Shown here one piece after another: positions 3,103 to 24,282 of a stretch of 64,000 nt of DNA. Origin of the DNA: Candidatus Eiseniibacteriota bacterium (GTDB lineage: Bacteria > Eisenbacteria > RBG-16-71-46); the NCBI GenBank assembly GCA_963717935.1, contig CAVQXP010000004.1:726423-790422 (forward strand), given 5' to 3'. The position numbers and the translations under genes were made by a program. Each line of letters begins with the position of its first letter. Positions within the stretch are counted from its first letter, which is position 1. The notes below the pieces were generated by a model. The model did not search any database. It had not been told where the DNA came from and saw only the letters and a list, made by a program, of their open reading frames with translations.

Positions 3103-3132
3103 TTGACACCCATCTTTTTGCCCTCCTATACT
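3103..3132 (+). promoter_or_regulatory. Near-consensus sigma70-type promoter (TTGACA, 18 nt, TATACT) upstream of the cold-shock-domain gene; it implies a leader of about 190 nt
   Basis: TTGACA at 3103-3108 and TATACT at 3127-3132. Cold-shock genes classically have long 5' UTRs. Confidence 0.45.
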
Positions 3133-3322
3133 CGTGCTGCAGTTCCTGAGTGGGCCGACCAGTCGAGCGTGGTTCGTCCGTGAATCTTCTGTCCCAGGTG
3201 AGTGCCCAGTCCTCGTTCCGGGTGGTTCGCCTCGCCCAGTCCATCGCCCTGGCGGGCGCTTGCCTGCCGGGGCATCCGTGTCTCTGTACCGTCCCGCTCC
3301 CTCGGAGGCTCCGCTCCGCGCC

Positions 3323-3964: not shown

Positions 3965-3983
3965 GCCCGGCAGGGCCGAAGGG

Positions 3984-4016
3984 GAAGGCCTCTGCGCCCG
4001 GGGCGCGGAGGCCTTC
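3984..4016 (+). terminator. GC-rich hairpin (15-bp stem with one mismatch, 3-4 nt loop) 20 nt after the cold-shock gene stop; no U-tract
   Basis: GAAGGCCTCTGCGCC-cgg-GGCGCGGAGGCCTTC. Confidence 0.4.
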
Positions 4017-4040
4017 CGTCAAGAGGTGGGACGCGACCGC

Positions 4041-5675
4041 ATGCTCGAGACCGTCAAGACCTTCACCGCGCTGAGCGAGGAGTTCGTGGAGGAGAGCCTG
4101 CGCCTGTGGCCGGTCGAGGCCACGGCGGCCGGCATCCACGACTACGACCACAGGCTGCCCGACGACACGGCGGAAGGCTTCCACGCGCGCGGCGCGTGGC
4201 TGCGCGACCTCGAGCAACGGCTCGCGGCCTCGGTGACCTGGGAGGAGTTGCCCACCGAACAGCGCGTGGACTACGCCCTGCTGCGCTCGCGCATCAGCGT
4301 GCTGCGCGCCGAATTCGAGGAGATCCGCGCCCACGCCCGCGATCCCGTTGCCTGCCTGCGCACGGCGCTCGACGGGGTGACGCTGCTGGTGACGCGTCCC
4401 TTCGCTCCGTTCGAAGAACGCAGGGAGGCGATCATCGGGCGCCTGATGGCGATCCCGGAGTACCTGGCCGCGGCGGGTGCGAGCCTCGGGCAGGTGCCCG
4501 GGGTCTGGGTGGAGCTGGCCCTGGAGGTCGCCGACGGGGGCCCGCCGTTCGTCAACGAAGTCGCGCACGCCCTGCTGCGTGCCTTTCCGACCGATGCCGA
4601 GCGCATCGAGCACGCGAGCGTGCGCGCCAGTGCGGGCTTCGCCGCCTTCCGGGAGACGCTCGAGCGCGACCTCGGCCCGCGTGCGGGCGGGGACTTCGCC
4701 CTGGGCGGGCGCTGGCTGGACTTCCGGCTCGAGCGCGAGCACCTGCTGCCGCTGAAGAACGAGGCGCTCGAGGAGCTCGGGCGCGAGCACGTGGCGCGTC
4801 TGCGGCGACTGCTGGAGAACGAGGCGCGGCGGCTCGACCCGCACCGTCCCTGGCGCGAGCAGATCGCGGAGATCCGCTGGCCGGAGGGGCCCCGCGCGCA
4901 GTGCGCGGCGCTCGGGGCCGAGCTCGAGCGAGCGCATCGTTTCGTCGTGGAGCGGCGGCTCGCGCCCCTGCCCGAGGTCCCGCTGGCGGTCGCGGAGGGG
5001 AGGACCTGGCAGCGCCCGCTCCACGCGGGGGTGGCCTACCTGCCGCCCGCGCCATTCGACCTCGATCCGGCGGGCATGTTGTTCGTGCCCGCGGGGGAAG
5101 GCGCGCGATGGTCCCCGACGCGGGCGGAACCGCCCGCGCGCACAGGGCCCGCGCTGGCCGCGGTGCGCCAGGGCTGGCCGGGGCTCCATCTGCAAGCGTC
5201 GCTCGCGATCCACTGCGGCTCGCGTCTGCGCCGGCTCGCGGCCAACCGCGTGTTCGCCGAAGGCTGGGCGCTCTACGCCGAGGAGTTGATGGCGGAGGAG
5301 GACTTCTGCACCTCGCCCGCCGACCGGCTCGGGCTCATCCTCGACCTGCTCGCGGGCGCCGGCTGCGCGGTCGCGGACGCGGGCCTGCACGGCGGGCGCA
5401 TGAGCCTCGTCGCCGCGGCCGGCTACCTCGCCGACGAGGCGCTGCTCGGGCGCGCCGAGGCGCTCGCCGAGGCGAAGCGACTGACCCTCGCGCCCGCGCA
5501 GGCCCTGGGCGGGCTCGTGGGCCGGCTGCAGATCCTCGAGCTGCGCGAAGAGGCGAAACGGCGCCTGGGCGCACGCTACGATCGACTCGACTTCCATGCG
5601 GCCCTGCTCGCGGGGGGCACGCTGCCGCTCGCGCTGATCGGGGAGGAACTGTGGGAGCGGCTGGGGGTGGGCTGA
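4041..5675 (+). CDS. DUF885 family protein; the HExxPGHH-type motif looks degenerate
   Basis: FAEGWALYAEELMAEE and the C-terminal FHAALLAGGTLPLALIGEEL are DUF885 hallmarks. AGGTGG lies 11 nt before the ATG at 4041. The motif region reads GWPGLHLQASLAIH. Confidence 0.6.
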   Translation: MLETVKTFTALSEEFVEESLRLWPVEATAAGIHDYDHRLPDDTAEGFHARGAWLRDLEQRLAASVTWEELPTEQRVDYALLRSRISVLRAEFEEIRAHARDPVACLRTALDGVTLLVTRPFAPFEERREAIIGRLMAIPEYLAAAGASLGQVPGVWVELALEVADGGPPFVNEVAHALLRAFPTDAERIEHASVRASAGFAAFRETLERDLGPRAGGDFALGGRWLDFRLEREHLLPLKNEALEELGREHVARLRRLLENEARRLDPHRPWREQIAEIRWPEGPRAQCAALGAELERAHRFVVERRLAPLPEVPLAVAEGRTWQRPLHAGVAYLPPAPFDLDPAGMLFVPAGEGARWSPTRAEPPARTGPALAAVRQGWPGLHLQASLAIHCGSRLRRLAANRVFAEGWALYAEELMAEEDFCTSPADRLGLILDLLAGAGCAVADAGLHGGRMSLVAAAGYLADEALLGRAEALAEAKRLTLAPAQALGGLVGRLQILELREEAKRRLGARYDRLDFHAALLAGGTLPLALIGEELWERLGVG

Positions 5676-5986
5676 CGCACAACCGTCGAGGCGTCCGGCT
5701 GCGCCACCCCGCCCTCACACGCCTTCGGAACTCGTCCGCGGGCGGCGGGGCGCAGACACGGGGCTCGCAGCGGGGGTCCCGGCCCCGGCCGACGCAGGAT
5801 GCGGCGGCCGGGGAATTGCCGGGGAGCGAGCACCGCCAGGGAAAGCCCGCGCAGCGCGCGGGCGCTGGCGGAGCGGAGCGTCCCCGCGAAGGGCCCCGCG
5901 TCTGCGCCCCGCCGCAGGTTCGATCGGGGGGGCATGACGAAGGGGCGGAGCCGTCAGGCTCCGCCCCTTCGGACACCCGGGGCTGC

Positions 5987-7297
5987 TACCAGTGGTACCC
6001 GACGCCGATGCCCACCGCGTTGACGAAGGTCTTGTACTCACCCGTGAACGTGTCGAGCGGGGACGGCAAGTCCGGCTCGAGCGCCACGCCGACGCGGGGC
6101 CGCGCGAAGATGGCGAGTTCGTAGACGTCCACCGTCCAGCGCTTGTCGGTCCCGAGACGCGCAGCCCAGGCCCAGCGTCAGGCCGTGGCGGTCGGCGTCC
6201 GGCAGCAGGGGCGTGACCGCGTTGACCGGCGCGGGCGACTTGTCGAAGTAGTAGCCGGCACGGTAGGCCAGGCAGCCGCGCCGGTACTCGGCCCCGGTGC
6301 GGGCCTGCCACGCGTTGCCGTAGTCCTCGATCTTGCGCTTGTCCGGCGTCAGAGCGCTCTCGAAGTCGATCGGCAGGTCGTTGAAGACCTTCCACTCGTG
6401 CACGTTGAAGTCCGCCTCGACCGTCCACGCGGGCTTCGGGTTCCACGCCGCTCCGACCGACCACATGGCGGGGAAGCGCAGCACCGTGCTGACGCCCTGG
6501 TCCTTCAATACCGCGGCCAACTGCTGCGTCCAGCAGCGAGATGCCCGTCGCGATGCTGGTGAAGTCGGCCGTGCCGTCGTCTATGTGCACCACGACCTTG
6601 CTGCGGTAGTAGGCGCCCAGCTTCCACTCGGACGTCGGCGTGAACAGCACGGCCGCGTTCCATCCCGGGGCGGGAGTGAAGTCCGACGTGAGGTCCACGT
6701 CCGCCACGTGTTCCGTGCCGAGGCCGTAAGCGCTCAGGTCCCGGTAGGCCTGGTTCTTGAGCCCCACCTTGGCCCACATCACGTCGCCACCGGCCGCGAA
6801 GCTCCACTTCTCGTTGGGCGCATAGGCCAGGCAGAGGCTGGCGTTGAGCCCCTGCAGGTCCGCCTTGGTGACGAGATAGCTGCCCGCGAAGGTCTCCGGG
6901 TCCCACTCGACGCCCAGGCCGAAAGGCGAGTTGATCCCGATGCCGACGGCCCAGCGCTTCGCCCAGCTGCGCGAGGCGTAGACCGTGGGCGGGTAGAAGG
7001 TCTGCCGGACCATGTCCGCCGAGCCGTCGGCGCCGGGGTAGGGGGCCTGGCCCGTGAACTCCGTGACGGGCTGCAGCGCGGTGCCGCCCACGTAGATCCA
7101 GGTCCCCTCGAGTCGGGTCATCGCGGCGGGGTTGAAGAACACCGCCGAGGCGTCGTTCACCGAAGCGGTGGCGGCGCCGGCCATCCCGAGGGCGGCGGCG
7201 CCCTGCTCGTAGATGCTGTATCCGGCCGCGTGGGCCAGCGTGGGGAGCAGGACGGCCACGAGCATCGCGGCGGCCAGCAGGGTCCGGATCGTTTCAT
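5987..7297 (-). CDS. fadL: Outer-membrane long-chain fatty-acid transporter of the FadL/OmpP1/TodX family, with about three internal frame breaks
   Basis: Signal peptide and SIYEQGAAALGMAGAATASVNDASAVFFNPAAMT at the N-terminus. C-terminus ...TFVNAVGIGVGYHW with a terminal aromatic residue, stop at 5987-5989. Middle segments lie in other frames. GAGGAG sits 10 nt before the ATG at 7297. Confidence 0.7.
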
Positions 7298-7301
7298 CGG
7301 G

Positions 7302-9140
<1,839 letters not shown>

Positions 9141-9475
9141 GCCGTGAACCTCAGGCCTTCCAGTGTCCGGAGTCCGGCCCCGGCACCCGGAGCCCTGTCG
9201 CAAGCGAAGCCCGGCACCGAGCCGGGCGTTCGGGAACGGTTAGCCTACTCATGACGTTCCCACAAGCACAAAGTGAGGAGCCCCGCGCTGGTCCAGGCTG
9301 GCCCCTCGTCCGTTGACATGTTCGGGGCCCTGCGGGAGAGTCGCTCCTCGAGTCCGGAGTTCCCGCCGCAACCGGGTCCGCCGGGGTGACCGCACCCGCG
9401 TCTGCCGGGTGCCCCGGGGGTGTCCCGGGGTGTGCGGGCGCCCAGCGGCACCCTCGCAGTGCCATGGAGGCCTTC

Positions 9476-10273
9476 ATGCGCATCCCCTCGTCCCCGGTCG
9501 CGTGGTGTGCCGCGTTCCCGGTCTTGATTCTGCTGCTGGCTCAGCCCACCCTTTCCCAGCCCGGGCACGGCCGCTCGGACGAACTGCTCGGGCAGGCCGC
9601 CGAGCGCTACGCCCACGCGGACCTCAAGGGCGCCCGGGCCAGCTACCTGGAGGCATTGAGCGCCGCGCCCGGGCGTTTCACGGTGCTTCACCGCCTGGCC
9701 CGCGTCGAGTCCATGCTGGCCGAGGACGCCTCGGGAGAGGACGCCCGCCGGCTCGTGGCGGCGGCTGTCGAGCACGCCCGCGAGGCGGTCAAGACCGCCC
9801 CGGACAGCGCGGCCGGCCACCTGGAGTTGGCGGTGGCGCTGGGGCGGCAGGCCCTCAAGGAAGGGCCCAAGACCCAGCTCTCGCTCTCCCGGGAGATCAA
9901 GTCCGAGGTGGAACGGACCCTGGCCCTGGACCCGGCCCTGGGCCGGGCCTGGCACGTCCTGGCGCTGTGGAACCGCAAGCTCGCGAGCCTCAATCTCATC
10001 GAGCGCACCGTCGCCAAGACCGTCCTGGGGGGGGTGCCGAAGGGGGCTTCGATGGAGAACGCGGTGGCGGACCTGCAGAAGGCCATCGAATTGGAGCCTG
10101 CCTACGTGAACCACCGGCTCGAGCTGGGGCGGACGTTCATGCAGCTGAAGCGCCGCGACGAAGCGCGTCGCGAGCTGGAACGCGCGGTCGCCCTGCCACC
10201 CGCGGGCGGCCCGCTCGACCCGAAATACAAGGCCGAGGCGCAGGAGTTGCTGGCCCGGCTCAAGAAGAACTGA
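9476..10273 (+). CDS. Secreted TPR-like protein, 13 nt upstream of the thiolase gene
   Basis: Signal peptide MRIPSSPVAWCAAFPVLILLLAQPTLSQ. Helical repeat character. Same strand as fadA and tightly spaced to it. Confidence 0.5.
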   Translation: MRIPSSPVAWCAAFPVLILLLAQPTLSQPGHGRSDELLGQAAERYAHADLKGARASYLEALSAAPGRFTVLHRLARVESMLAEDASGEDARRLVAAAVEHAREAVKTAPDSAAGHLELAVALGRQALKEGPKTQLSLSREIKSEVERTLALDPALGRAWHVLALWNRKLASLNLIERTVAKTVLGGVPKGASMENAVADLQKAIELEPAYVNHRLELGRTFMQLKRRDEARRELERAVALPPAGGPLDPKYKAEAQELLARLKKN

Positions 10274-10286
10274 CGCCCGGCTCCTC

Positions 10287-11573
10287 ATGACCGCCCCTGC
10301 GGTCTGGATCCTGGGCGGAATCCGCACGCCTTTCGCCAGGGCGGGGACGGCGCTCCGCCTCATGAGCGTCGTCGAGCTCGGGCGTCTGGCCGTGGGCGAG
10401 CTGCTGGCGCGCCACGAGTTGGATCCGGCGCGACTCGACGAGGTCATCCTGGGCAACTGCGCCCAGCCGGCCGAGGCCGCCAACGTCGCGCGCGTGACCG
10501 CCCTGCGCGCCGGCATCCCCGAGCGCGTGCCCGGACTGACCGTGCACCGCAACTGTGCCTCCGGCATGGAAGCCGTGGGGCTGGCCGCGGAGCGTATCCA
10601 GCTCGGGCGCGCGCAGCTCGTCCTGGCCGGCGGCATGGAATCCATGAGCCAGGTCCCGCTGCTGTTCCCGCCCGAATTCGGCGTCTGGCTCGAAGGCGTG
10701 ACCCGGGCGAAACACCCGCTCGCGCGCCTGGGCGCGGCACTGCGCTTCCGGCCCGCGCTGCTGCGGCCGCGGCCCGCGTTGCTCGAGGCGCTGCACGACC
10801 CGGTGTGCGGGCTCGGCATGGGGGAGACCGCGGAGCTCCTGGCACGCGAGTTCGACCTGCGGCGCGAGCGCCAGGACGAGTTCGCGCTCCTGAGCCACCA
10901 GCGTGCGGTGGCGGCGCGCGAAAGGCTGCGCGAGGAGATCGTGCCGGTCTTCCCGCCGCCCACCTGCGAGCTGATGCGCGACGACGCGGGGCCGCGCGAG
11001 GACCAGACGCTCGAGCAACTGGCGCGACTTCGGCCTTGCTTCGACCGGCGCAACGGCACGGTCACCGTGGGCAACGCCTGCCCGGTCACCGATGGGGCGG
11101 TGGCCCTCCTGGTCGGTGGCGAGGAGGCCGCGCGTGACTGGCCCGTGCCGCCGCTGGGGCGGGTGCGGGCCTGGGCGGTCGCGGGGCTCGAACCGCGGCG
11201 CATGGGGCTCGGGCCGGTCCACGCCATCGCGCGCGTGCTCGACGAGACCGGGTTTTCGCTCGAGGATTTCGAACTGTTCGAGATCAACGAAGCCTTCGCC
11301 GTTCAGGTGCTGGCCTGTCTCGAGGCGGCCAGGTCCGTGCCGTTCGCGCGCGCCGAACTGGGCCGCGACCGGGCGCTGGGCGAGATCCCGCTCGAGCGGC
11401 TCAACGTGAACGGCGGGGCCATCGCGCTGGGGCACCCGGTGGGGGCGAGCGGGGCGCGGCTGCTGCTCACGCTGCTGCTCGAGATGCGCCGCCGCGGGGC
11501 GAAGCGCGGGCTCGCGGCGCTGTGCGTGGGTGGCGGACAGGGCGCTGCCTTCGTGCTGGAGCGTGACGGATGA
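10287..11573 (+). CDS. fadA: Acetyl-CoA C-acyltransferase (3-ketoacyl-CoA thiolase)
   Basis: ILGGIRTPFARAG...NCASGMEAV...NGGAIALGHPVGASGARLL...CVGGGQG thiolase signatures. ATGA overlap with the next gene. Confidence 0.85.
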   Translation: MTAPAVWILGGIRTPFARAGTALRLMSVVELGRLAVGELLARHELDPARLDEVILGNCAQPAEAANVARVTALRAGIPERVPGLTVHRNCASGMEAVGLAAERIQLGRAQLVLAGGMESMSQVPLLFPPEFGVWLEGVTRAKHPLARLGAALRFRPALLRPRPALLEALHDPVCGLGMGETAELLAREFDLRRERQDEFALLSHQRAVAARERLREEIVPVFPPPTCELMRDDAGPREDQTLEQLARLRPCFDRRNGTVTVGNACPVTDGAVALLVGGEEAARDWPVPPLGRVRAWAVAGLEPRRMGLGPVHAIARVLDETGFSLEDFELFEINEAFAVQVLACLEAARSVPFARAELGRDRALGEIPLERLNVNGGAIALGHPVGASGARLLLTLLLEMRRRGAKRGLAALCVGGGQGAAFVLERDG

Positions 11574-13735
11574 GCGTGTTCCACGTCGAGTTCCTGCCGT
11601 CGGGTGTGCCGGGTCCGGAGGGGATCGCCCACCTCGTGATGGACGACCCCACACGGCGGGTGAACGTCATCGACGAGCAGGCGCTCGGGGACCTCGAGTC
11701 CGCGCTCGAGCTGCTCGAAGGCCGGCCGGACCTCGGCGGGCTGGTCGTGCGGAGCGGCAAGCCCGGCACCTTCGTCGCCGGCGCCGACGTGGACGCGATC
11801 GCCGCACTCACGGACCGCGCGCTGGCGCTGGCCCTGGTCCGGCGCGCGCAGGCGGCCTTCGCGCGCCTGGCCGCGCTGCCCTTCCCGACGGTCGCGGCCA
11901 TCGACGGGCCCTGCCTGGGCGGGGGCACCGAGCTGGCGCTGGCCTGCCGCTCGCGCGTCGCCGCTCAGGAACCGCACACGCGGATCGGGTTGCCCGAGGT
12001 CCCGCTCGGCATCATCCCGGGCTCCGGCGGAACCACGCGCCTGCCGGGACTCGTGGGGCTCTCGACCGCGCTGGACCTCATCCTCACGGGTCGCACGCTG
12101 GACGCGCGGGGCGCCGAACGCGCGGGGCTGGTCGAGCGCGCGGTGCCCGGCGTGTGGCTCATCGAGCACGCGCACCGGCGCCTGGCCGAACTGGCGGCGC
12201 GCGGGCGGAGCCACGGGCGCGCCGGCGTCCGCTGGCGGCCGCGGGGACTGCGCTCGTGGTTCATGGATGGAACGCCGTTCGGGCGGGGCCTGACGTTCGC
12301 TCGCGCGCGGGCGATGACGAAGGCGCGCACCGGCGGGCACTACCCGGCGGCGGACGCCGCGCTCAGCGTCCTGCACCACGGCTTCGCCCAGCCCATCGAG
12401 GCTTCGCTGCGGCTCGAGGCCGAGTGGGTGAGCGACCTGATCGTCGGGCCGGTGTGCAAGAACCTGGTGCGCGGCTTCCGGCTCGCCGAGCGAGCGCGCA
12501 GGGAGTCGCTGCCCGGGATGGAGGAGGCAGCCCCCGTCGAGCGGCTCCAGGTCGTAGGTGCGGGGGCGATGGGCACCGGTGTCGCCGAACTCGCCAGCCG
12601 GCACGGGATCGAGGTGCGGCTGCGCGACACCGATCCGGCCGCGCTGGCGCGCGCGATGCGCGCGGTGCGCGCGCGCGTCGCCGAACGCTCGGGCCGGCCT
12701 GGGGCCGCGCGGCACGAGACCGAGGGGCAGCTCGCGCGCATCTTCCCCAGTCCGGATCTGGCCGGCCTGAAGCGCGCGGATCTCGCGATCGAGGCGGTGG
12801 TGGAGGATCTGGACGTCAAGCGCCGGGTGTTCGGCGAACTCGAGGTCCGCATGCGACCCGACGCGGTGCTGGCGACCAACACCTCCTCGCTCTCCGTGGA
12901 CGAGCTGGCCGCGGGGCTCGAGCGCCCGCAGCGCTTCGTCGGGATGCATTTCTTCAATCCGGTCCACCGCATGCCGCTGGTCGAGGTGGTGCGCGGCGCG
13001 AAGACGTCGGCAGTGGCGCTGGCCACGGCCGTCACGCTGGCGCGGCGGCTGGGCAGGACCCCGATCGTGGTGAACGACGGACCCGGGTTCGTCGTGAACC
13101 GGGTGCTGACGCCCTATCTGCGGGAGGCGTTTCACCTGGTCGAGGATGGCTACCGCGTGGCCGACGTGGACGCGGCCATGCGGGCCTTCGGCATGCCCAG
13201 GGGGCCCTTCGAGGTGATGGACGATGTGGGCCTCGGCGTCACCGCGAACGTGGCCGCGGTCCTGGGCCGGGCGTTCCCCGGGCGCGTCGCACCCGTGCCG
13301 CAACTCGACGCTCTGCTGAAGGCGGGGCTCCTGGGACGGAAGAGCGGCGCGGGGTTCTACCGTTACTGGAGTGGACGGCGCACGCTGGATCCGCTGGCCG
13401 CGCGGCTACTGCGTCCCGCGCGCGAGCGCCGACCCGCGAGCCTCGAGGTCCTCGCCGAGCGGATGACGCTCGCCATGGTGAACGAGGCCGCGCACTGCCT
13501 CGCCGATGGCGTGGTGGCGGACGCCGGGACGCTGGACCTGGCGCTGCTCTGCGGCGCCGGTTTCCCGCCCTACCGCGGCGGTCCGCTGCGCCACGCCGAC
13601 GCGCTGGGACTCGCCAGGGTGGAAGCCCGGCTGACGGCGCTGCGCGCCGAGAAGGGCGAGCGCTTCAAGCCCGCGCCGCTCATCGAGGAACTCGCGGCCC
13701 GGGGCGGAACGTTCACGGAGCCGGCGAGCGGGTAG
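11570..13735 (+). CDS. fadB: Fatty-acid oxidation complex alpha subunit (enoyl-CoA hydratase / 3-hydroxyacyl-CoA dehydrogenase)
   Basis: N-terminal crotonase fold FVAGADV...DGPCLGGGTELALAC. Central GAGAMGTG Rossmann motif. 721 aa. Confidence 0.85.
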   Translation: MSVFHVEFLPSGVPGPEGIAHLVMDDPTRRVNVIDEQALGDLESALELLEGRPDLGGLVVRSGKPGTFVAGADVDAIAALTDRALALALVRRAQAAFARLAALPFPTVAAIDGPCLGGGTELALACRSRVAAQEPHTRIGLPEVPLGIIPGSGGTTRLPGLVGLSTALDLILTGRTLDARGAERAGLVERAVPGVWLIEHAHRRLAELAARGRSHGRAGVRWRPRGLRSWFMDGTPFGRGLTFARARAMTKARTGGHYPAADAALSVLHHGFAQPIEASLRLEAEWVSDLIVGPVCKNLVRGFRLAERARRESLPGMEEAAPVERLQVVGAGAMGTGVAELASRHGIEVRLRDTDPAALARAMRAVRARVAERSGRPGAARHETEGQLARIFPSPDLAGLKRADLAIEAVVEDLDVKRRVFGELEVRMRPDAVLATNTSSLSVDELAAGLERPQRFVGMHFFNPVHRMPLVEVVRGAKTSAVALATAVTLARRLGRTPIVVNDGPGFVVNRVLTPYLREAFHLVEDGYRVADVDAAMRAFGMPRGPFEVMDDVGLGVTANVAAVLGRAFPGRVAPVPQLDALLKAGLLGRKSGAGFYRYWSGRRTLDPLAARLLRPARERRPASLEVLAERMTLAMVNEAAHCLADGVVADAGTLDLALLCGAGFPPYRGGPLRHADALGLARVEARLTALRAEKGERFKPAPLIEELAARGGTFTEPASG

Positions 13736-13740
13736 GCCCG

Positions 13741-13754
13741 CACCGCCGGCGGTG
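13741..13754 (+). terminator. Perfect 14-nt GC palindrome CACCGCCGGCGGTG 6 nt after the fadB stop; possible terminator hairpin
   Basis: The sequence is self-complementary. No U-tract follows. Confidence 0.3.
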
Positions 13755-14453
13755 GCCGCCCGGCGGCGCACGCTCCGACCGGAATGCGGAAACGCCCGGC
13801 TGGTGGGCCGGGCGTCTGCCGTGGGAGGCCGGAGCTTGCCCACTCCGGGACCCTGCTCGCAACTCTGGAACACTCGCACGACTGGCTAGCTCGCTCGCCA
13901 CGTTCTCGCGTACGTGACGCTACTATTGACGCTCCGAACGGCCGATAAGTTGCAACGCGCGCGCAAAGAACGCGGCGAAGGGGACCAGCGCGGTGGTGCG
14001 GGCGACGAAAGCCGCGTTCATTGGGGTTTTCGCGGGCCTTGCTTGACTTCCTGCTGACCTCGGGCATAGTTGATTCGGGTTTTCGGGCCCACCCCCATGG
14101 GGGGGCACACGGGTCCGACGGCTGTTCCCCCGCTTACCGCGGCCGTCCGGCCGCGCGACCCGAGCGCGGGGGTGCTGACGGGAGCACCGGTACACGGCCA
14201 TGGATCTGCTGTCGCGCTCGAGGGGCTCGTCGCCTGACCGGGAGACGGGTTCTTTTCATTGGTGCGCGGGTGGCCACGGCCCGGCCGTGTCTTTCGCCCG
14301 ATTCTCCGCGGCGGCGTTCGCGCCGGCGCGGTACCTGATCCGGCTGGCTCCGCGCCATGCGGGCCGGACCGACTTCGCCGTTCCTACCGCCGTTGGGCAC
14401 TCCGACACGCACGTCGTCGCGGTCGCCCCCGGCCGGGCTTCCAGGAGAGACTC

Positions 14454-15740
14454 ATGAGCACGAAGGGGTTCAATTCGTTCGAGATCGCCCAGGCCCAGTT
14501 CGACCAGGTCGCCGCACTGCTCGATCTGGACGCCGGGACGCGCGAGTTCCTGCGCTGGCCGATGCGGGAGTACGCCTTCAGCATCCCGGTGCGCATGGAC
14601 GACGGGCACGTGAAGGTCTTCCGCGGCTTCCGCGTGCAGCACAACGACGCCCGCGGACCCTCGAAGGGTGGCATCCGCTTCCACCCGCAGGAGACCGTGG
14701 ACACGGTGCGCGCCCTCTCCATGTGGATGACCTGGAAGTGCGCGGTGGTGGACATCCCGCTGGGCGGCGGCAAGGGCGGCGTGATCTGCGACCCGCACAA
14801 CCTGAGTGCCCGCGAGCAGGAGCAGATCTGCCGTGGCTGGGTGCGGCAGCTGGTGCGCAACGTGGGTCCGGTCCAGGACGTCCCGGCGCCCGACGTCATG
14901 ACCAACGCGCAGCACATGCTGTGGATGCTCGACGAGTTCGAGGCGGTGCGCGGCGGCCGCTACCCCGGGTTCATCACCGGCAAGCCCGTCGGCCTGGGTG
15001 GCTCGCTGGGGCGCACCGAAGCGACCGGCTACGGCGTGGTCTTCACGCTGCGCGAGGCGCTGCGCGAGCACGGCGTCGCGGTCGAATCCACGCGCGCCAG
15101 CGTGCAGGGCTTCGGCAACGTGTCCCAGTACGCCATCCGGCTCTACGAGCAGCTCGGCGGCAAGGTCATCTGCGTGTCCTCGTGGGACCAGAAGGACCAG
15201 GCCTCGTATTCCTTCAAGCGGGTCTCCGGCGTGGACATGGACCAGCTGGTGGGCATCACCGACGTCTTCGGCGGCATCGACAAGGAGAAGGCGAAGAAGC
15301 TCGGCTACGAGGTGCTGCCGGGCGACGCGTGGATCGAGCAGCCGGTCGAGATCCTGATGCCCTGCGCGCTCGAGAACCAGATCACGCCCGTGACCGTGAA
15401 GAAGATCCACGCGGCCGTGAAGTTCGTGGCCGAGGGCGCCAATGGTCCCACCACCACCGAGGCCGACGCGGTGCTCAAGGACCGGGGGATCTACCTGATC
15501 CCGGACTTCCTGGCCAACGCGGGCGGCGTGACCTGCAGCTACTTCGAGCAGGTGCAGTGCAACATGAACTACTACTGGGACAAGGACGAGGTGCTGGGCA
15601 AGCTCGACAGCAAGATGACCTCGGCCTTCCTCGCGGTGAGCGAGCTGGCGCGCGAGCGCAAGCTGTACATGCGTGACGCCGCCTATGTCATCGCCATCAA
15701 CCGCGTCGCCCAGGCCTGCAAGGACCGCGGCTGGGTGTGA
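14454..15740 (+). CDS. gdhA: NAD(P)-dependent glutamate dehydrogenase
   Basis: Catalytic Lys motif PSKGGIRFH. Glycine-rich DIPLGGGKGGV. AGGAGA lies 5 nt before the ATG at 14454. Confidence 0.85.
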   Translation: MSTKGFNSFEIAQAQFDQVAALLDLDAGTREFLRWPMREYAFSIPVRMDDGHVKVFRGFRVQHNDARGPSKGGIRFHPQETVDTVRALSMWMTWKCAVVDIPLGGGKGGVICDPHNLSAREQEQICRGWVRQLVRNVGPVQDVPAPDVMTNAQHMLWMLDEFEAVRGGRYPGFITGKPVGLGGSLGRTEATGYGVVFTLREALREHGVAVESTRASVQGFGNVSQYAIRLYEQLGGKVICVSSWDQKDQASYSFKRVSGVDMDQLVGITDVFGGIDKEKAKKLGYEVLPGDAWIEQPVEILMPCALENQITPVTVKKIHAAVKFVAEGANGPTTTEADAVLKDRGIYLIPDFLANAGGVTCSYFEQVQCNMNYYWDKDEVLGKLDSKMTSAFLAVSELARERKLYMRDAAYVIAINRVAQACKDRGWV

Positions 15741-15792
15741 CGGCGGGAGCCGGGGCGGCGCGCGACGCCGCCCCGGCGACGCGGTCCCGACC

Positions 15793-17595
15793 ATGAACAG
15801 CGACGCTACGGGCGGCCAGGGGTTGCCGCGGTTCGACCGCCGCTTCTTCGAGGGGCGGGAGACCTTCACCACCATCGGCTCGGGCGCTCTCGGGGGCAAG
15901 GCCTCGGGATTGCTCGCCGCGCGTGAAGCGCTGGCGGACCGGCCGGCGGCCCTGCGCCATGAGGACCTGGAGATCTCGGTCCCGACGCTCACCGTGATCA
16001 CCACCAACGCGTTCGACCTGTTCCTCGAGCGTAACCGCCTCCACGAGCTGGTCTACTCGGGCTCCGACGACCGCCAGATCGCGGCCGCGCTGCAGCGAGC
16101 GGAGCTTCCCACGGAGATCGTGGGCGACCTGTGGGCGCTCGTCCGGCGGGTCCACACGCCGCTGGCGGTGCGCTCTTCGAGCCTGCTCGAGGACGCGCTG
16201 GCGCACCCGTTCGCCGGCGTGTACGCGACCAAGATGATCCCCAACAACCCGCACGACCCCGAGACCCGCTTTCGCAAGCTGGTCGAGGCGGTCAAGTTCG
16301 TCTACGCCTCGACCTTCTTCCGCGCGGCGCGCACCTACGTGCGCGTGGCCGGCCGGAAGCCGGAGGAGGAGAAGATGGCGGTGATCGTGCAGGAGGTGGT
16401 GGGGCACCGGCACGGCCCGCGCTTCTACCCCGAGGTCGCGGGGGTGGCCCGCTCGTGGAACTTCTACCCGACGGGACACGCGCAGCCGGCCGACGGTGTG
16501 CTGGACCTGGCGCTCGGTCTGGGCCGGACCATCGTGGACGGCGGGCGCGCGTGGACCTGCTCGCCCGCCCACCCGCGCTCGGTGCCGCCGTTCAACTCGG
16601 TGGGCCACATGATCGAGCAGAGCCAGAGCGAGTTCTGGGCGGTGAACATGGGCCCGCCTCCGGCGTACGACCCCACGATCGAGACGGAATACCTGGTGCA
16701 GGCGGGCCTCGCCGACGCCGAGGCGGACGGGACGCTGGTCCACGTCGCCTCGACCTACGACCCCGACTCGGACCGCGTCGTCATGGGGGTGGGATCCAGC
16801 GGCCCGCGCATCGTGGATTTCGCGCCGATGCTGCGGCTGGCGCGGTGGCCGGTGATCGAGGCGGTGCGCGGCCTGCTCGCGCTCTTCGCCGCCCGCCTGG
16901 GCGCCCCCGTGGAGATCGAGTTCGCGCTCACCTTCCCCGACCCGTCTGCGAAGGGTGCCCGGCCTTCCCCCGGCGCCCCGGAGGGCCTCCCCGCCCGCCT
17001 GGGCTTCCTGCAGGTGCGGCCGATGCTGGTCAGCAGCCAGACGGTCGAGATCGGGGAGGATGAACTTGCCGGTCCGCGGGCCGTGGTGCGCTCCGAGCAC
17101 GTCATGGGGAACGGGGTCATCGAGGGCCTCCGCGATGTCGTGTACGTGAAGCCCGAGGTCTTCGAGGCGCGCCATACGCCGGCGATCGCCGCGGAGGTGG
17201 ACCGCCTGAACCAGGCGCTGGTCGAGGAGGGCCGGTCCTGCGTGCTGGTCGGCTTCGGCCGCTGGGGCAGCGCCGATCCCTGGCTGGGCATCCCGGTCGA
17301 GTGGGCCCAGATCGCGAGCGCACGCGTCATCGTCGAGGCGAGCCTGCCGGCCATGAACGTGGACATGAGCCAGGGCGCGCATTTCTTTCACAACCTGCTG
17401 AGCTTCCGCGTGGTCTACTTCTCCGTGCCGGGCCTCGACGCGTCGGGGATCGACTGGGAGTGGCTGCGCGGGCTCCCGGCCCGGCGGGAGACCGATTTCG
17501 TACGGCACGTGGAGACGCCGGCGCCCCTGCTCGTGAGGGTGGACGGCCGCCGGGGCCGGGGTGTGGTGCTGCGCGGCATGGGGGGGGACGCATGA
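15793..17595 (+). CDS. PEP/pyruvate-binding (PPDK_N, ATP-grasp-like) domain protein
   Basis: VRSSSLLEDALAHPFAGVYATK and MAVIVQEVVGHRHGPRFYPEVAGVARS match the nucleotide-binding domain of PEP synthase / pyruvate phosphate dikinase. Starts 53 nt after gdhA. Confidence 0.65.
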   Translation: MNSDATGGQGLPRFDRRFFEGRETFTTIGSGALGGKASGLLAAREALADRPAALRHEDLEISVPTLTVITTNAFDLFLERNRLHELVYSGSDDRQIAAALQRAELPTEIVGDLWALVRRVHTPLAVRSSSLLEDALAHPFAGVYATKMIPNNPHDPETRFRKLVEAVKFVYASTFFRAARTYVRVAGRKPEEEKMAVIVQEVVGHRHGPRFYPEVAGVARSWNFYPTGHAQPADGVLDLALGLGRTIVDGGRAWTCSPAHPRSVPPFNSVGHMIEQSQSEFWAVNMGPPPAYDPTIETEYLVQAGLADAEADGTLVHVASTYDPDSDRVVMGVGSSGPRIVDFAPMLRLARWPVIEAVRGLLALFAARLGAPVEIEFALTFPDPSAKGARPSPGAPEGLPARLGFLQVRPMLVSSQTVEIGEDELAGPRAVVRSEHVMGNGVIEGLRDVVYVKPEVFEARHTPAIAAEVDRLNQALVEEGRSCVLVGFGRWGSADPWLGIPVEWAQIASARVIVEASLPAMNVDMSQGAHFFHNLLSFRVVYFSVPGLDASGIDWEWLRGLPARRETDFVRHVETPAPLLVRVDGRRGRGVVLRGMGGDA

Positions 17596-20500
17596 CCGAA
17601 CAGGGGCCGATGGACGAGATCCTGAAGGCGTTGCAGGAACGGGCCAAGGAGCTCAACTGCCTCTACCGCATCGACGAGATCGTGCACGACGTGGAGCGGC
17701 CGGTCGAGGATTTGCTGCGCGCGGTGGCCGAGGCGCTGCCGCAGGGCGTGCAGTACCCGGCGCACTGCGTGGCGCGCTGCGTGCTGCGCGATCTCGACGT
17801 GCGCGGCGCGGACTTCGTCGAGACCCCGTGGAAGCTCTCGGCGCCCATCGTCATCTCGAACCGGCGGGTCGGCGAGCTGTGCATCTACTACACGCAGCAG
17901 ATGCCCAGGGCCGACGAGGGGCCGTTCCTCAAGGAGGAGCGCAGGCTCATCGATGCGGCCGCCGACCGTGTCGCCCGGGCCGTCCAGCACCGCGAGCTGA
18001 CCGAGGTGTTCGGGCGCACGCAGATCGGCCACTCCGCGGTGGACGCCGTGCTCCGCCAGGACTGGAGCATCATCCTCGACCTGCTGCGCCGCACCGACCA
18101 GAACCTGTACAACCAGGTCGCGCGCAAGATGCTGAACCACCTGTCCTGGAGCGGCATCGAGGAAGCCAAGGAGCTGCTCCTCAGCATCGCCGGCCCGGAG
18201 GAGGCGTGGGAGCCCGGTGACGAGAATCGCCCGACGCGGCGCAACGCGCCCAAGGACTTCGAGGTCATCAGCGCCGAGACCTTTGAGATCGCGGCTGCCC
18301 ACCTGAGCGAGCAGGAGCTGCTCAGCAGCATCCAGACCTGGATCAAGGAGGACCGGCTCAACTTCCTGGTGCTTGCGCTCGAGAGCAGCAACACCTCGCT
18401 GCCCGAGATCGCCAACGCGCTGGAGCGCTACCACCACACGGGCCTGGACGTGCGCGAGCTGTCGCCCGCCATGCACCTGGGTCTCAAGGTCTCGCTCATC
18501 CGGCGCCTGCTCACCGACAACCTCGAGTTCATCAACACCTGCCGGCCGTGGGTGGAGATCGATGACTTCGTGGACCTCGTCAGCCACACCATCCTGCTGC
18601 CACATAGCCACGGCCGGGTGGGCGGCAAGGCCAGCGGGCTCCTGCTGGCGCGGCACGTCCTGCGGCGCTCTCCCGAGCACCGCGAGCTGCTGGACGGGGT
18701 CAAGGTGCCCCGGACCTGGTACGTGCCCTCGGACGGTCTCCTCCAGTTCCTCGCCTACAACAACCTTGACGACGTCTACAACTGGAAGTACCGCGACTTG
18801 GACGAGATCCGGCAGGAATACCCGCACATGCTCCAGGTCTTCAAGAGCTCGCGTTTCCCGGCCGAGTTCGTGCAGGGGCTCTCGACCGCGCTCGACGACC
18901 TCGGCGACCGGCCGCTCATCGTGCGCAGCTCGAGCCTGCTCGAGGACCGCGCGGGCGCGGCCTTCTCGGGGAAGTACAAGAGCCTGTTCCTCGCGAACCA
19001 GGGCCGCAAGGCCGACCGGCTGGCGGCCCTGCTGGACGCCATCGCCGAGGTCTACGGCTCGGTCTTCGGCCCGGATCCTCTCCAGTACCGCGCGGAGCGC
19101 GGGTTGCTCGAGCATCACGAAGAGATGGGCATCATGATCCAGGAGGTGGTGGGCATGCGCGTGGGCCGCTACTTCCTGCCTTCGTTCGCGGGCGTCGGCT
19201 TCAGCAACAACGAGCTGCGCTGGTCGCCCCGCATCCGGCGCGACGACGGGTTGCTGCGCCTGGTGCCGGGTCTCGGCACGCGCGCGGTGGACCGTCTGGC
19301 CGATGACTACCCGATCCTGGTCGCGCCGGGGCAGCCAGGGCTGCGCGTCAACGTCACCCCGGAGGAGGTCTGCCGCTACTCGCCGCGCAAGGTCGACGTC
19401 ATCAATCTGGAGACCAACTCCTTCGAGACCGTGGACCGCCACACCCTGCTGAAAGAAGTCGGCGGACACCTCCCCAGGCTCGCCCAGATCGTCTCGCTCT
19501 ACGAGCACGACATGCTGCGGCGCCCCGGCGGCCTCGACCTGCGCTTCAACGAGGACAACCTGATCTTCACCTTCGAGGGCCTGTTGACGAACACCGACTT
19601 CGTGCCGCGCATGCAGGCCGTCCTCAAGGTCCTGCGCGAGGCGCAGGGCGTACCGGTGGACATCGAGTTCGCCTCGAACGGAGACGAACTCTACCTGCTG
19701 CAGTGCCGGCCCCAGAGTCACGCGCCGGACACCGCGCCGGCACCCATCCCGCGCGACCTGCCGCAGGAGCGCGTGCTGTTCTCCGCCAACCGCTATGTCT
19801 CGAACGGCGCCGTGCCCGACATCACGCACATCGTCTACGTGGACCCCGATGGCTACAGCCGGCTGGGCGACCTGAACGAGTTGCGCGACGTGAGCCGCGC
19901 CGTCAGCAGTCTCAACAAGATCCTGCCCAAGCGCCAGTTCGTCCTCATGGGACCGGGGCGCTGGGGCAGCCGCGGCGATGTCAAGCTGGGCGTGAGCGTG
20001 ACGTATTCCGACATCAACAACACCGCGATGCTGATCGAGGTCGCGCGCAAGAAGGGCAACTACGTCCCGGATCTCTCGTTCGGCACGCACTTCTTCCAGG
20101 ACCTCATCGAGTCAGGGATCCGCTACCTGCCGCTCTACCCCGACGATCCGGGCGTGGCCTTCAACGAGCCGTTCTTCCGCAAGTCCGAGAACGTCCTGGC
20201 CCGGCTGCTGCCGGACCTCGCGTACCTCGCGGACACCGTGCGGGTGATCGACGTGCCGGAGGCCGCGGGTGGCCAGGTGCTGCGCGTGCTCATGAACGCC
20301 GACCTCGAGGAGGCCGTGGGCGTGCTGGCCCCGCCGGGCGTGGCCGTGGTCACGTCGGCAGCGCTGCCGAGCCCCACGGCGCGGCCGGCGGAGGACCACT
20401 GGCGCTGGCGGTTGCGCATGGCGCAGAAGGTCGCCGCGGACCTCGATCCCGCGCGCTTCGGCGTCCACGCTTTCTACGTCTTCGGCAGCACGAAGAACGC

Positions 20501-20771
20501 CTCGGCCGGGCCCGGCAGCGACATCGACGTCATCATCCACTTCAGGGGCACGCCGGAGCAGCGCCGGGAGCTGGAACTCTGGCTCGAGGGCTGGAGCCTG
20601 TGCCTTGCGGAGATGAACTTCCTGCGCACCGGCTACCACAGCGAGGGCCTGCTGGACGTGCACCTCGTCACCGACGAAGACCTCGTGCGGCAGACCAGCT
20701 ACGCGGCCAAGATCGGGGCCATCACGGACGCCGCGCGTCCGCTCATGCTGGGAGGCCCGGCGGCGGGATGA
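17592..20771 (+). CDS. Large multidomain protein: GAF-like N-terminus, PPDK_N PEP/pyruvate-binding domain, and a C-terminal Pol-beta-type nucleotidyltransferase domain
   Basis: ATGA overlap with the previous CDS. N-terminus ELNCLYRIDEIV...CIYYTQQMP. Central part SHGRVGGKASGLLLARHV...LIVRSSSLLEDRAGAAFSGKYKSLFL...MGIMIQEVVGMRVGRYFLPSFAGVGFS. C-terminus FGVHAFYVFGSTKNASAGPGSDIDVIIHF, a GS...DxD nucleotidyltransferase motif. Confidence 0.65.
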   Translation: MTEQGPMDEILKALQERAKELNCLYRIDEIVHDVERPVEDLLRAVAEALPQGVQYPAHCVARCVLRDLDVRGADFVETPWKLSAPIVISNRRVGELCIYYTQQMPRADEGPFLKEERRLIDAAADRVARAVQHRELTEVFGRTQIGHSAVDAVLRQDWSIILDLLRRTDQNLYNQVARKMLNHLSWSGIEEAKELLLSIAGPEEAWEPGDENRPTRRNAPKDFEVISAETFEIAAAHLSEQELLSSIQTWIKEDRLNFLVLALESSNTSLPEIANALERYHHTGLDVRELSPAMHLGLKVSLIRRLLTDNLEFINTCRPWVEIDDFVDLVSHTILLPHSHGRVGGKASGLLLARHVLRRSPEHRELLDGVKVPRTWYVPSDGLLQFLAYNNLDDVYNWKYRDLDEIRQEYPHMLQVFKSSRFPAEFVQGLSTALDDLGDRPLIVRSSSLLEDRAGAAFSGKYKSLFLANQGRKADRLAALLDAIAEVYGSVFGPDPLQYRAERGLLEHHEEMGIMIQEVVGMRVGRYFLPSFAGVGFSNNELRWSPRIRRDDGLLRLVPGLGTRAVDRLADDYPILVAPGQPGLRVNVTPEEVCRYSPRKVDVINLETNSFETVDRHTLLKEVGGHLPRLAQIVSLYEHDMLRRPGGLDLRFNEDNLIFTFEGLLTNTDFVPRMQAVLKVLREAQGVPVDIEFASNGDELYLLQCRPQSHAPDTAPAPIPRDLPQERVLFSANRYVSNGAVPDITHIVYVDPDGYSRLGDLNELRDVSRAVSSLNKILPKRQFVLMGPGRWGSRGDVKLGVSVTYSDINNTAMLIEVARKKGNYVPDLSFGTHFFQDLIESGIRYLPLYPDDPGVAFNEPFFRKSENVLARLLPDLAYLADTVRVIDVPEAAGGQVLRVLMNADLEEAVGVLAPPGVAVVTSAALPSPTARPAEDHWRWRLRMAQKVAADLDPARFGVHAFYVFGSTKNASAGPGSDIDVIIHFRGTPEQRRELELWLEGWSLCLAEMNFLRTGYHSEGLLDVHLVTDEDLVRQTSYAAKIGAITDAARPLMLGGPAAG

Positions 20772-21621
20772 GCGCGCGGGTCGCCTGCCCGGGCGACTCG
20801 AGATCGAAGCGCACCAGCGCCAGCTCGGGGCCGTCGTGGGCGGCCGAGAGACAGTGCGTGCGCCCGAGGCGGTCGCGCCAATCGCCGGTGAGCCGCGCTG
20901 ACTCGTGCACGTGGCCGTGGAGCGAGAGCAGCGGCTGGCGCGCCTCGAGGAAGCGTCGGACGGCGATGCTCCCCACGTGCGGGTCGAGCGGGACGTGGTC
21001 CACGGTCTGGCCGTCGAGCGCCGCGCGGTCGAGCCGCGTGTCGTAGGGCGGCGCGTGGAAGAGGAAGACCCCCCGGGCGAGGTCCCCGGCGCCGGCGAGC
21101 CGCTCGAGGTCTTCGCGGATCGTGGCGTTGCGTGCCTCGCCCTCGTGCAGCGGGACCGTGCGCCAGCCCTCCTCGGGTGAGGTGCAGCCGGGGTCCACGT
21201 GGCGCGAGACGTCGTAGCGCTCCCAGTCCTTGAGCGCGAAGGGCGTGGGGGGCACGCAGGCGTAGCCGAAGACCGTCCAGTCGCCGAACGGGATGCGCCG
21301 CCCGTGCGCGTATTCCCAGACGCCCGTCGCGGCGGCCTCGATCACGCTCTCCTCCTCGGCGCGCCCGTCGTCGTTGCCGAGGATGAGGAAGACCCGCGGT
21401 GCCGCGGCGCCGAGGTCCTCGCGCACGCGCGTGAAGCCGGGTGCGAGGACCTCCCGCACGAAGTCGCCGTCCGCGGCGCCGACCGCCGCGGCGAGGCCGG
21501 AGGGTAGGAGGTCTCCGCCCAGGAACACGGCGGCCGGACGTTCGGCGCGGATCACCGTGAACAGCGCCGCGTAACGCCCGGCCGCGCCGTGCAGGTCGGC
21601 GACGAAGAGGCAGCGGGTCAT
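20743..21621 (-). CDS. Calcineurin-like metallophosphoesterase
   Basis: LFVADLHG, GGDLL, LGNDDG and LHGHVHE phosphoesterase motifs. 12 nt downstream of ftsH on the same strand. Its 3' end overlaps the convergent multidomain gene by 29 nt. Confidence 0.75.
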   Translation of the reverse strand: MTRCLFVADLHGAAGRYAALFTVIRAERPAAVFLGGDLLPSGLAAAVGAADGDFVREVLAPGFTRVREDLGAAAPRVFLILGNDDGRAEEESVIEAAATGVWEYAHGRRIPFGDWTVFGYACVPPTPFALKDWERYDVSRHVDPGCTSPEEGWRTVPLHEGEARNATIREDLERLAGAGDLARGVFLFHAPPYDTRLDRAALDGQTVDHVPLDPHVGSIAVRRFLEARQPLLSLHGHVHESARLTGDWRDRLGRTHCLSAAHDGPELALVRFDLESPGQATRALIPPPGLPA

Positions 21622-21633
21622 GAAAAGTCCGGG

Positions 21634-23702
<2,069 letters not shown>

Positions 23703-23706
<4 letters not shown>

Positions 23707-24282
23707 GATCCAGCCTCCTCGAGCACGCCGACGTAGGGCAGGTTCCGGTACCGCTCGACGTCGTCCATCCCATAGCCGACCACGAACTCCTTGCCGATCT
23801 TCCAGCCCGAGTAGTCCACGGGTACCTGGATCCTGCGGCAAGGCACCTTGTCGAGCAAGGTCGCGACCCGCAGGCTCGCGGGGCGCCGCCGCTTCAGCAC
23901 GTCGAGCAGGAACGATACGCTCAGGCCGGAGTCCACCACGCCCTCGCAGAGCACCACGTGGCGGTCCGCGACGTCCTCGCGCAGGTCCATCAGCAGGCGC
24001 ACGTTGCCGCTCGACGTCTTTCCGGCGCCGTAGGACGAGACCGAGACGAAGTCGAGGTCCAGGTCGATGGGCGTGGCGCGCGCCAGGTCGCACTGGAACA
24101 TGCAGGCGCCCTTCAGCACCCCGACGAACAGCGGACGTTTGTCCTCGTAGTCGCGCGCCAGCTCCAGTCCGAGCTCGCGCAGGCGCCGGGCGATCTGCTC
24201 GGCGCGTGAACATGACCCGCATGACGGGACCCGTACCCGGGACGATGGCTTCGGCGTGGTCGGCTGGCTGGCTCTCAGTCAT
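23703..24282 (-). CDS. hpt: Hypoxanthine-guanine phosphoribosyltransferase, with one frame break near 24200
   Basis: VLCEGVVDSGLSVSFLLDVL PRPP motif and FVVGYGMDDVERYRNLPYVGVL at the C-terminus. The N-terminal part ...QIARRLRELGLELARDYEDKRPLFVGVLKGA is in an adjacent frame. Confidence 0.75.

Follow-up and report, generated by a model that had tools for sequence, protein, structure and literature searches.

The window analysed here, 64,000 nucleotides (nt) of contig CAVQXP010000004.1 from Candidatus Eiseniibacteriota bacterium (assembly GCA_963717935.1, positions 726,423 to 790,422 of the forward strand; G+C content ~71%), contains a gene set in which the glutamate dehydrogenase (GDH) gene gdhA is followed by 2 genes for proteins with an ATP-grasp domain of the PPDK_N (PF01326) type and by a convergent metallophosphoesterase (MPE) gene. 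We designate the 2 ATP-grasp proteins PPDK1 and PPDK2NT. The genes are as follows:

14454–15740, plus strand: gdhA, 428 aa; Pfam ELFV_dehydrog_N (E 9e-55) and ELFV_dehydrog (E 1e-67)
15793–17595, plus strand: PPDK1, 600 aa; PF01326 at residues 32–417 (115 bits)
17592–20771, plus strand: PPDK2NT, 1059 aa; PF01326 at residues 342–722 (184 bits) and PF01909 at residues 956–996
20743–21621, minus strand: MPE, 292 aa; PF00149

The gdhA stop and the PPDK1 start are separated by 52 nt, the ATG of PPDK2NT shares the tetranucleotide ATGA with the TGA of PPDK1, and the convergent MPE gene overlaps the 3′ end of PPDK2NT by 29 nt. The coordinates, open reading frames (ORFs), ATGA overlap, and 29-nt overlap given in the first-pass annotation of this DNA were all present as described, and its domain assignments (2 PPDK_N domains, a GAF domain, a nucleotidyltransferase, and a metallophosphoesterase) were borne out by Pfam and by a GAF test. 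The functional statements below are drawn from sequence, structural models, and gene order.

The association of gdhA with these genes is conserved far beyond chance. More than 6000 database clusters match PPDK2NT; the best 120 are 54–93% identical to it and nearly all full length. In a scan of one genome per species, a PPDK2NT relative was found in at least 596 species. We compared 80 loci of this family, and another 80 of the receiver-type family described below; both sets comprise the loci most similar to the queries and are not random samples. The best 80 loci cover at least 11 phylum-level groups, including Acidobacteriota, Eisenbacteria, Planctomycetota, Ignavibacteria/Bacteroidota, Calditrichota, Zixibacteria, Gemmatimonadota, Krumholzibacteriota, Cloacimonadota, Spirochaetes, and others. 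Loci that extend at least 3.2 kb upstream were scored for linkage, defined as a gdhA orthologue at least 55% identical and no more than 3.5 kb upstream. Such an orthologue lay upstream of PPDK2NT at 66 of 67 loci (63 on the same strand, 3 divergent), and the gdhA orthologues of the related loci are 61–89% identical to that of the window. PPDK1 is located between gdhA and PPDK2NT at 61 of 76 loci; at most others, gdhA is followed directly by PPDK2NT. Outside the 4 core genes, which were masked for this comparison, no ORF family occurred at more than 5 of the 80 loci. Since the flanks are otherwise unrelated, general inherited synteny was rejected as the cause of the linkage. Conservation across related genomes was the check that the first-pass annotation had set beforehand, and the linkage passed it, at 66 of 67 loci and in at least 11 phyla. 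A functional tie of some kind between the PPDK proteins and GDH is very probable in our judgment.

GdhA is a hexameric-type NAD(P) glutamate dehydrogenase of the archaeal/Bacillus type. Its assignment to the ELFV hexameric-type family follows from Pfam and from alignment with the Thermococcus profundus enzyme (1euz; phmmer E 2.6e-121), in which the KGGIRF and GGGKGG segments are aligned and the GGGKGG motif is intact. The comparison sequence was taken from the 1euz alignment; its first 4 residues, which the argument does not use, were supplied by hand. Relative to T. profundus GDH, the PPDK2NT-linked GdhA clade has 2 conserved insertions in the NAD-binding domain, SWDQxDQxSY and IDKxKAxxLGY. 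In the window protein they read SWDQKDQASYSF and IDKEKAKKLGY and are encoded as follows:

15189–15224, plus strand: first GdhA insertion, residues about 246–257
about 15270–15310, plus strand: second GdhA insertion, residues about 273–286

These insertions are candidate docking or modification loops for the PPDK2NT-linked clade only. As a general docking or modification site, the SWDQxDQxSY insertion was rejected because the GDHs encoded beside 2 core-only variants (L164 and L170, described below) lack it.

The AlphaFold model of PPDK2NT (mean pLDDT 81.8) reveals 5 domains:

17592–17996, plus strand: residues 1–135, GAF-fold sensor domain
18060–18584, plus strand: residues 157–331, all-helical domain with no recognisable relative
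18612–19757, plus strand: residues 341–722, ATP-grasp domain of the phosphoenolpyruvate (PEP) synthase/rifampin phosphotransferase type
19773–20336, plus strand: residues 728–915, divergent β/β/α domain, probably of the swivelling type
20397–20771, plus strand: residues 936–1059, minimal nucleotidyltransferase (MNT/Pol-β type), with G965-S966, D977-x-D979, and D1022

The N-terminal domain was assigned to the GAF domains by fold or hidden Markov model (HMM) and is similar to the GAF domain of Enzyme I-Ntr. The helical domain had no Pfam match and is kept in the core-only variants. The ATP-grasp domain carries the motifs GGKASG, VRSSSLLED, MIQEVVG, and DIEFA...LLQCRP, and in the model the swivelling domain follows it directly (residue 722 to residue 728). 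PPDK1 is paralogous to the core of PPDK2NT (residues 341–846, 28% identity). Two motifs, GxGRWG[ST] and S-x-G-[STA]-H-F-F, are shared without variation by PPDK2NT, PPDK1, and a third paralogous family. The invariant histidine is His833 in PPDK2NT (codon 20088–20090), at the N-terminus of a helix within S-F-G-T-H-F-F, and His530 in the C-terminal swivel-type domain of PPDK1 (codon 17380–17382). The catalytic histidine of pyruvate phosphate dikinase (PPDK) and Enzyme I is likewise located at a helix N-terminus, and His833 is predicted to be a phosphohistidine carrier. For the swivelling domain, no match to the mobile domain of PEP-utilising enzymes was found in Pfam at E ≤ 10, a PDB profile search gave chance hits only, and 2.5 Mb of related loci provided no genuine mobile-domain sequences for an hhalign profile. 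Judged by its modelled fold and by the domain order, residues 728–915 probably form a swivelling phosphohistidine domain. The C-terminal domain scored 26 bits against the PF01909 (NTP_transf_2) cut-off of 21, contains the hG[GS]x9-13Dh[DE]h motif, a third carboxylate, and the MNT fold, and matches HEPN-MNT structures; the proposal that it is a nucleotidyltransferase is therefore upheld by both the structural model and Pfam.

PPDK1 and PPDK2NT also appear to belong together. Their stop and start codons overlap at 45 of 63 loci and are no more than 30 nt apart at 10 more. In the 1631-aa protein P0086 the 2 are fused, with a PPDK1 part 51% identical to that of the window followed by PPDK2NT, and the protein databases hold other single-chain fusions of 1523–1654 aa. 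An Ignavibacteriae genome (L047, about 2820–7754) likewise encodes PPDK1 and PPDK2NT in frame with no stop between them, matching the database fusions. From the gene overlap and the fusions, we infer that the 2 proteins form a heteromeric complex.

Comparison of PPDK1 and PPDK2NT with PEP synthase and PPDK revealed that (i) both proteins have the N-terminal ATP-grasp domain (PF01326) of PEP-utilising dikinases, including the motifs GGK and VRSS..ED and the Q/E metal ligands, and behind it a domain that is probably of the histidine-bearing swivelling type; (ii) unlike PEP synthase and PPDK, neither has the PEP/pyruvate-binding TIM barrel (no match to PF02896), PPDK2NT ending in the nucleotidyltransferase and PPDK1 after its swivel-type domain; and (iii) the T-S-H motif is replaced by G-T-H-F-F. 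With the TIM barrel missing and T-S-H replaced, PEP synthesis is impossible for these proteins. The description of the pair as PEP/pyruvate-binding in the first-pass annotation thus does not hold; the PEP/pyruvate domain is missing, and an ATP-grasp domain plus a probable swivelling-histidine module is present instead. The same applies to the database label “PEP/pyruvate-binding,” which is a misnomer. Names among the best 120 PPDK2NT homologues are limited to “pyruvate, water dikinase,” “predicted nucleotidyltransferase,” and “hypothetical,” and the 120 PPDK1 homologues listed are all unnamed, “hypothetical,” or “PEP/pyruvate-binding domain.”

In Mycobacterium tuberculosis, the truncated PPDK VadK (Rv1127c) phosphorylates its own His422 with Mg-ATP and is reported to bind methylcitrate synthase and dehydratase, which it pulls down, and to adjust the flux through the methylcitrate cycle (PMC13400623). 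By its published description, VadK is the closest precedent; it has ATP-binding and phosphohistidine domains and no PEP/pyruvate domain, an architecture compatible with that described here. VadK is, however, a single PPDK-derived protein of ~490 aa with a canonical histidine domain, whereas the present proteins are of the PEP-synthase/rifampin phosphotransferase (RPH) type, have a divergent swivelling domain that Pfam does not recognise, and form a paralogous pair or a fusion. They also have further domains (GAF or receiver, helical, nucleotidyltransferase), are linked to GDH, and come from other phyla. HpeHI is a two-component small-molecule dikinase (9goj; PMC12167813). RPH (5hv1/5hv6) and HpeH have a dedicated small-molecule-binding domain, which PPDK1 and PPDK2NT do not; unlike PPDK2NT, RPH and HpeHI have no sensor domains, nucleotidyltransferase, or GDH linkage. 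Family HMM scores were 39 bits versus 999 for RPH (NF041857) and 44–53 bits versus 1300 for PigC, and the alignment with RPH was good for the ATP domain only (276 residues).

Enzyme I passes phosphate from its swivelling histidine to a protein, and Enzyme I-Ntr combines a GAF sensor with such phosphotransfer. In Enzyme I-Ntr (PtsP), the donor is PEP bound on a TIM barrel, the acceptor is NPr, and there is no nucleotidyltransferase; here, the donor would be ATP on an ATP-grasp domain. The likeness to GlnE and GlnD is conceptual and lies in metabolite-sensing, reversible nucleotidyltransferase control of a nitrogen-assimilation enzyme or regulator. GlnE and GlnD belong to other nucleotidyltransferase subfamilies with other architectures, and what removes their modifications is an HD domain or a second nucleotidyltransferase rather than an MPE; their Pfam and NCBIfam families were not among the matches of the window proteins, and, unlike in GlnE/GlnD, related GDH-linked variants do without the nucleotidyltransferase. 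MNT domains act by AMPylating partner proteins. The PPDK2NT domain shares the fold and the GS...DxD motif of MntA and other MNTs, which by contrast are stand-alone proteins of ~100–130 aa that accompany HEPN toxins. SelO-dependent AMPylation inactivates mammalian GLUD1 (PMC12375108); SelO has an unrelated pseudokinase fold and shows that AMPylation can switch a GDH off.

Pairing with GDH extends to paralogues of PPDK2NT. At several acidobacterial loci, the gene for a second GDH paralogue (453 aa) precedes one for a protein of 989 aa that combines a receiver-like domain with PPDK_N and the swivelling domain described above (REC-PPDK). A search of metagenome contigs with 8 aligned proteins of this kind yielded 511 relatives, from which loci L082–L161 were taken. 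Among the 57 loci with enough upstream sequence, a GDH of the second clade was directly adjacent on the same strand in 32 and 1–5.6 kb upstream in 10 more, and hence 42 were linked. The REC-linked GDH, an enzyme of the E. coli GdhA type, shares only ~32% identity with the window GdhA, and PPDK2NT is also present at only 5 of the 80 REC-PPDK loci. The pairing is common in soil and peat metagenomes. It was also seen at L035 (14107–18506, minus strand), and the REC-PPDK proteins, of ~990 aa, have in addition a weak DUF5752-like stretch.

A profile of the swivelling domain was compared with 1.84 billion proteins and matched 2050 cluster representatives at E ≤ 1e-3 (1495 at E ≤ 1e-10). The matches include “core-only” proteins of 750–800 aa, such as P0264 (767 aa), which aligns to PPDK2NT residues 162–912 with 44% identity and has neither GAF nor nucleotidyltransferase domain. 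Four core-only variants lay on contigs with usable flanks. In L164 and L170 a GDH gene immediately precedes the core-only gene; in L163 the GDH gene lies on the opposite strand at a distance of 2.1 kb. The L170 contig (873–9145) encodes, in this order, P-II, a 168-aa protein without a Pfam match, a metallophosphoesterase, a HAD hydrolase, GDH, the 752-aa core-only protein, and a HAMP-guanylate cyclase, a row that suggests a nitrogen-signalling context. In L163 (8497–9891) and L166 (8555–9802), a protein of 415–464 aa without a Pfam match is encoded 3′ of the core-only gene on the same strand and may be a further partner. Altogether, at least 3 distant GDH lineages are paired with this protein family, and the pairing arose independently in more than one family. 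Because paralogues and variants without the nucleotidyltransferase or the GAF domain are also GDH-linked, the link to GDH belongs to the dikinase-like core and not to the nucleotidyltransferase; the GAF, receiver, and nucleotidyltransferase domains have been added in particular lineages.

The MPE is a calcineurin-like metallophosphoesterase (PF00149, 35.3 bits versus a cut-off of 21.5) with the motifs DLHG, GGD, GNDD, and GHVH; searches of NCBIfam and the PDB gave 0 matches for a subfamily. An MPE gene is located within 3.5 kb downstream of PPDK2NT at 40 of 66 loci and is convergent in 37 of them, mostly at -1 to 80 nt from the stop. MPE relatives also occur beside members without the nucleotidyltransferase (L088, L097, and L170). 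At 2 of these loci, L088 (9649–10515) and L097 (3503–3886), the related MPE directly follows a receiver-type PPDK-like gene, and the MPE therefore tracks the dikinase-like core. It is a candidate reversing enzyme, for which a phosphatase role fits at least as well as that of a de-AMPylase.

The DNA around gdhA contains 2 further features that bear on expression:

14043–14070, plus strand: weak sigma-70-like promoter candidate, TTGACT-16-CATAGT, 9/12 matches, by consensus match only
15749–15777, plus strand: hairpin in the gdhA–PPDK1 spacer, perfect 12-bp GC stem, no U tract

The gap between fadB and gdhA is unusually long (719 nt; 13736–14453). The promoter candidate, which was the sole site found across 13500–21900, is located within this gap and would give a leader of ~380 nt. 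No riboswitch or other known RNA of Rfam was found in the gdhA leader and the spacer; the one match was a chance match (E 0.098). The hairpin with its flanks (71 nt) has a folding energy of -46.2 kcal/mol (z -4.0), and none of 200 shuffled sequences was equally stable. A consensus terminator scan did not flag it. The hairpin may be a terminator, an attenuator, or a stabiliser of the mRNA 3′ end, and co-transcription of gdhA and PPDK1 is uncertain because of its position after gdhA; abundant GDH and scarce regulators expressed from one promoter would be a plausible arrangement. Related gdhA–PPDK spacers (68 loci) have a median length of ~60 nt, by start codons that are themselves estimates, and 22 of the 68 contain a stable structure (z ≤ -2); many others are shorter than 40 nt and unstructured.

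Upstream of gdhA are fadD, a TPR gene, fadA, and fadB, and an FtsH-like gene lies downstream of the gene set. The former constitute a β-oxidation cluster (7302–13735; a fadD-like acyl-CoA synthetase on the minus strand, a TPR protein, the thiolase gene fadA, and fadB) that is retained in the closest relative, L081, but is not conserved in other phyla. The FtsH-like ORF (21634–24282, minus strand) encodes 882 aa from its first ATG, with FtsH_ext beginning at residue 239. Its N-terminus is probably over-extended; a close relative in L081 was called at 629 aa.

We propose as the best explanation that the locus encodes a sensor-controlled regulatory dikinase complex acting on GDH, and we give this reading about an even chance. 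PPDK1 and PPDK2NT would assemble as a heteromer, the ATP-grasp domain of each would bind ATP, His530 and His833 on the swivelling domains would be phosphorylated, and the phosphorylated swivelling domain would act on a protein partner. A protein is proposed because the pair has neither a PEP/pyruvate domain nor a small-molecule-binding domain. This partner would be the GDH encoded upstream, which would be modified by phosphoryl transfer or bound in a phosphorylation-dependent manner. The N-terminal GAF domain would tune the activity in response to a metabolite, the MNT nucleotidyltransferase of this lineage would add a nucleotidylyl (AMP-type) mark or serve self-regulation, and the convergent MPE would remove the mark. 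We infer the heteromer, the histidine autophosphorylation, the action on GDH, the ligand of the GAF domain, and what the nucleotidyltransferase and MPE do. The signalling character of the family, seen in its GAF and receiver domains and in the P-II, metallophosphoesterase, and HAMP-guanylate cyclase neighbours of L170, speaks for the proposal. The first-pass annotation had suggested a sensor-kinase/nucleotidyltransferase regulatory pair for GDH. This idea is supported in part, but the link is tied to the dikinase-like core and not to the nucleotidyltransferase; the accompanying picture of GlnE-style adenylylation is at most a side branch, since variants without the nucleotidyltransferase are also GDH-linked. 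A more specific form of the proposal is reversible covalent control of GDH, in which a GAF- or receiver-gated protein dikinase would phosphorylate the enzyme, the clade-specific MNT domain would AMPylate it, and a dedicated MPE would erase the marks. We regard this form as possible and rather doubtful. If true, it would be to GDH what the GlnE cascade is to glutamine synthetase, and it would provide the first dikinase of the PEP-synthase type that modifies a protein.

Several points weigh against action on GDH. The case is built from sequence, structural models, and gene order, and gene neighbourhood cannot separate action on the GDH protein from membership of the same pathway or response to the same signal. 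The linkage has exceptions, with no GDH near REC-PPDK at 15 of 57 loci or near 1 of the 4 core-only genes (L166). The parts are not constant either, PPDK1 being missing at 15 of 76 loci and MPE being present at only about 60%, and the hairpin behind gdhA may uncouple expression. Finally, RPH, HpeHI, and PigC, which share the two-domain logic without a PEP/pyruvate domain, phosphorylate small molecules. The main rival builds on these enzymes and on phenylphosphate synthase. It holds that the proteins form a small-molecule dikinase/nucleotidyltransferase pathway that phosphorylates, and perhaps adenylylates, a metabolite related to the GDH reaction or amino-acid catabolism, with GDH as a mere pathway neighbour, and the unassigned helical domain keeps it alive. 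However, no RIF-binding or HpeH-like substrate domain lies between the ATP-grasp and swivelling domains, no further biosynthetic or catabolic gene is conserved nearby, and N-terminal domains of the GAF or receiver kind are what signalling proteins typically carry. A specialised pathway would also account less well for the pairing with at least 3 distant GDH lineages than would a protein partner or the GDH reaction itself, and we consider this rival unlikely.

The GAF and receiver domains speak also for a nitrogen- or carbon-status signalling module whose output is not GDH and which shares a regulon, promoter, or position with gdhA owing to a common signal; in a variant, GDH would supply the local GAF ligand. 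The P-II and guanylate cyclase neighbours in L170, the hairpin, which suggests partly separate expression, and the REC-family genes without an adjacent GDH (15 of 57) agree with such a module. Against it, tight adjacency in at least 11 phyla despite scrambled flanks would be unusual for co-regulation alone, the pairing arose again with unrelated GDH lineages, and no other conserved candidate target is encoded nearby; the module and its variant together seem improbable to us. That the proteins are ordinary PEP synthase or PPDK paralogues located beside gdhA by accident is suggested by database names such as “pyruvate, water dikinase” and “PEP/pyruvate-binding domain-containing protein,” but they have no PEP/pyruvate TIM barrel (PF02896) and no PF00391 match, and their NCBIfam equivalog scores of 25–58 bits are far below the cut-offs of 598–1063. 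The first-pass annotation had named ordinary PEP-synthase paralogues at unrelated loci as the outcome that would speak against it, whereas the linkage to gdhA is conserved at 66 of 67 loci, and we think this explanation very improbable. Still less credible is a toxin–antitoxin or anti-phage defence element. The nucleotidyltransferase resembles MntA/MNT antitoxins, and PADLOC gave weak matches to the candidate PDC-S09 over 33 residues; these matches (16–23 bits), however, cover the GS...D motif only, no HEPN gene or mobile or defence neighbour is conserved in the flanks of the 80 loci, and the locus is chromosomal and housekeeping-like, 54–93% identical across phyla, and tied to gdhA. Even taken together, the PEP synthase and defence explanations have hardly any probability.

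Among the readings weighed, a regulatory dikinase complex with GDH as its putative molecular target would combine parts of known kinds, namely ATP-grasp/swivelling dikinase chemistry, a GAF domain, an MNT nucleotidyltransferase, and a metallophosphoesterase. Regulatory dikinase action on metabolic enzymes has itself been described very recently, for VadK. Novelty lies in the architecture, in the pairing or fusion of the paralogues, in the divergent swivelling domain, in the association with GDH and its recurrence across several GDH lineages, and in the wide phyletic spread; our literature search found no publication on a gdhA/PPDK_N/nucleotidyltransferase gene set. GDH stands at the junction of carbon and nitrogen metabolism, and bacterial hexameric GDHs are usually seen as controlled mainly by transcription or simple effectors. 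The carriers belong to phyla of soils and sediments (Acidobacteriota, Gemmatimonadota, Planctomycetota, Ignavibacteria, and others), whose members would be expected to depend mainly on amino acids and peptides for growth. Recognition of the family would correct the common misannotation as “pyruvate, water dikinase” or “PEP/pyruvate-binding protein” and would take regulatory dikinases such as VadK well past the actinobacteria. A sensor-gated, ATP-dependent module adjacent to GDH in at least 596 species-level genomes points to a widespread and so far unnoticed post-translational control of this enzyme.

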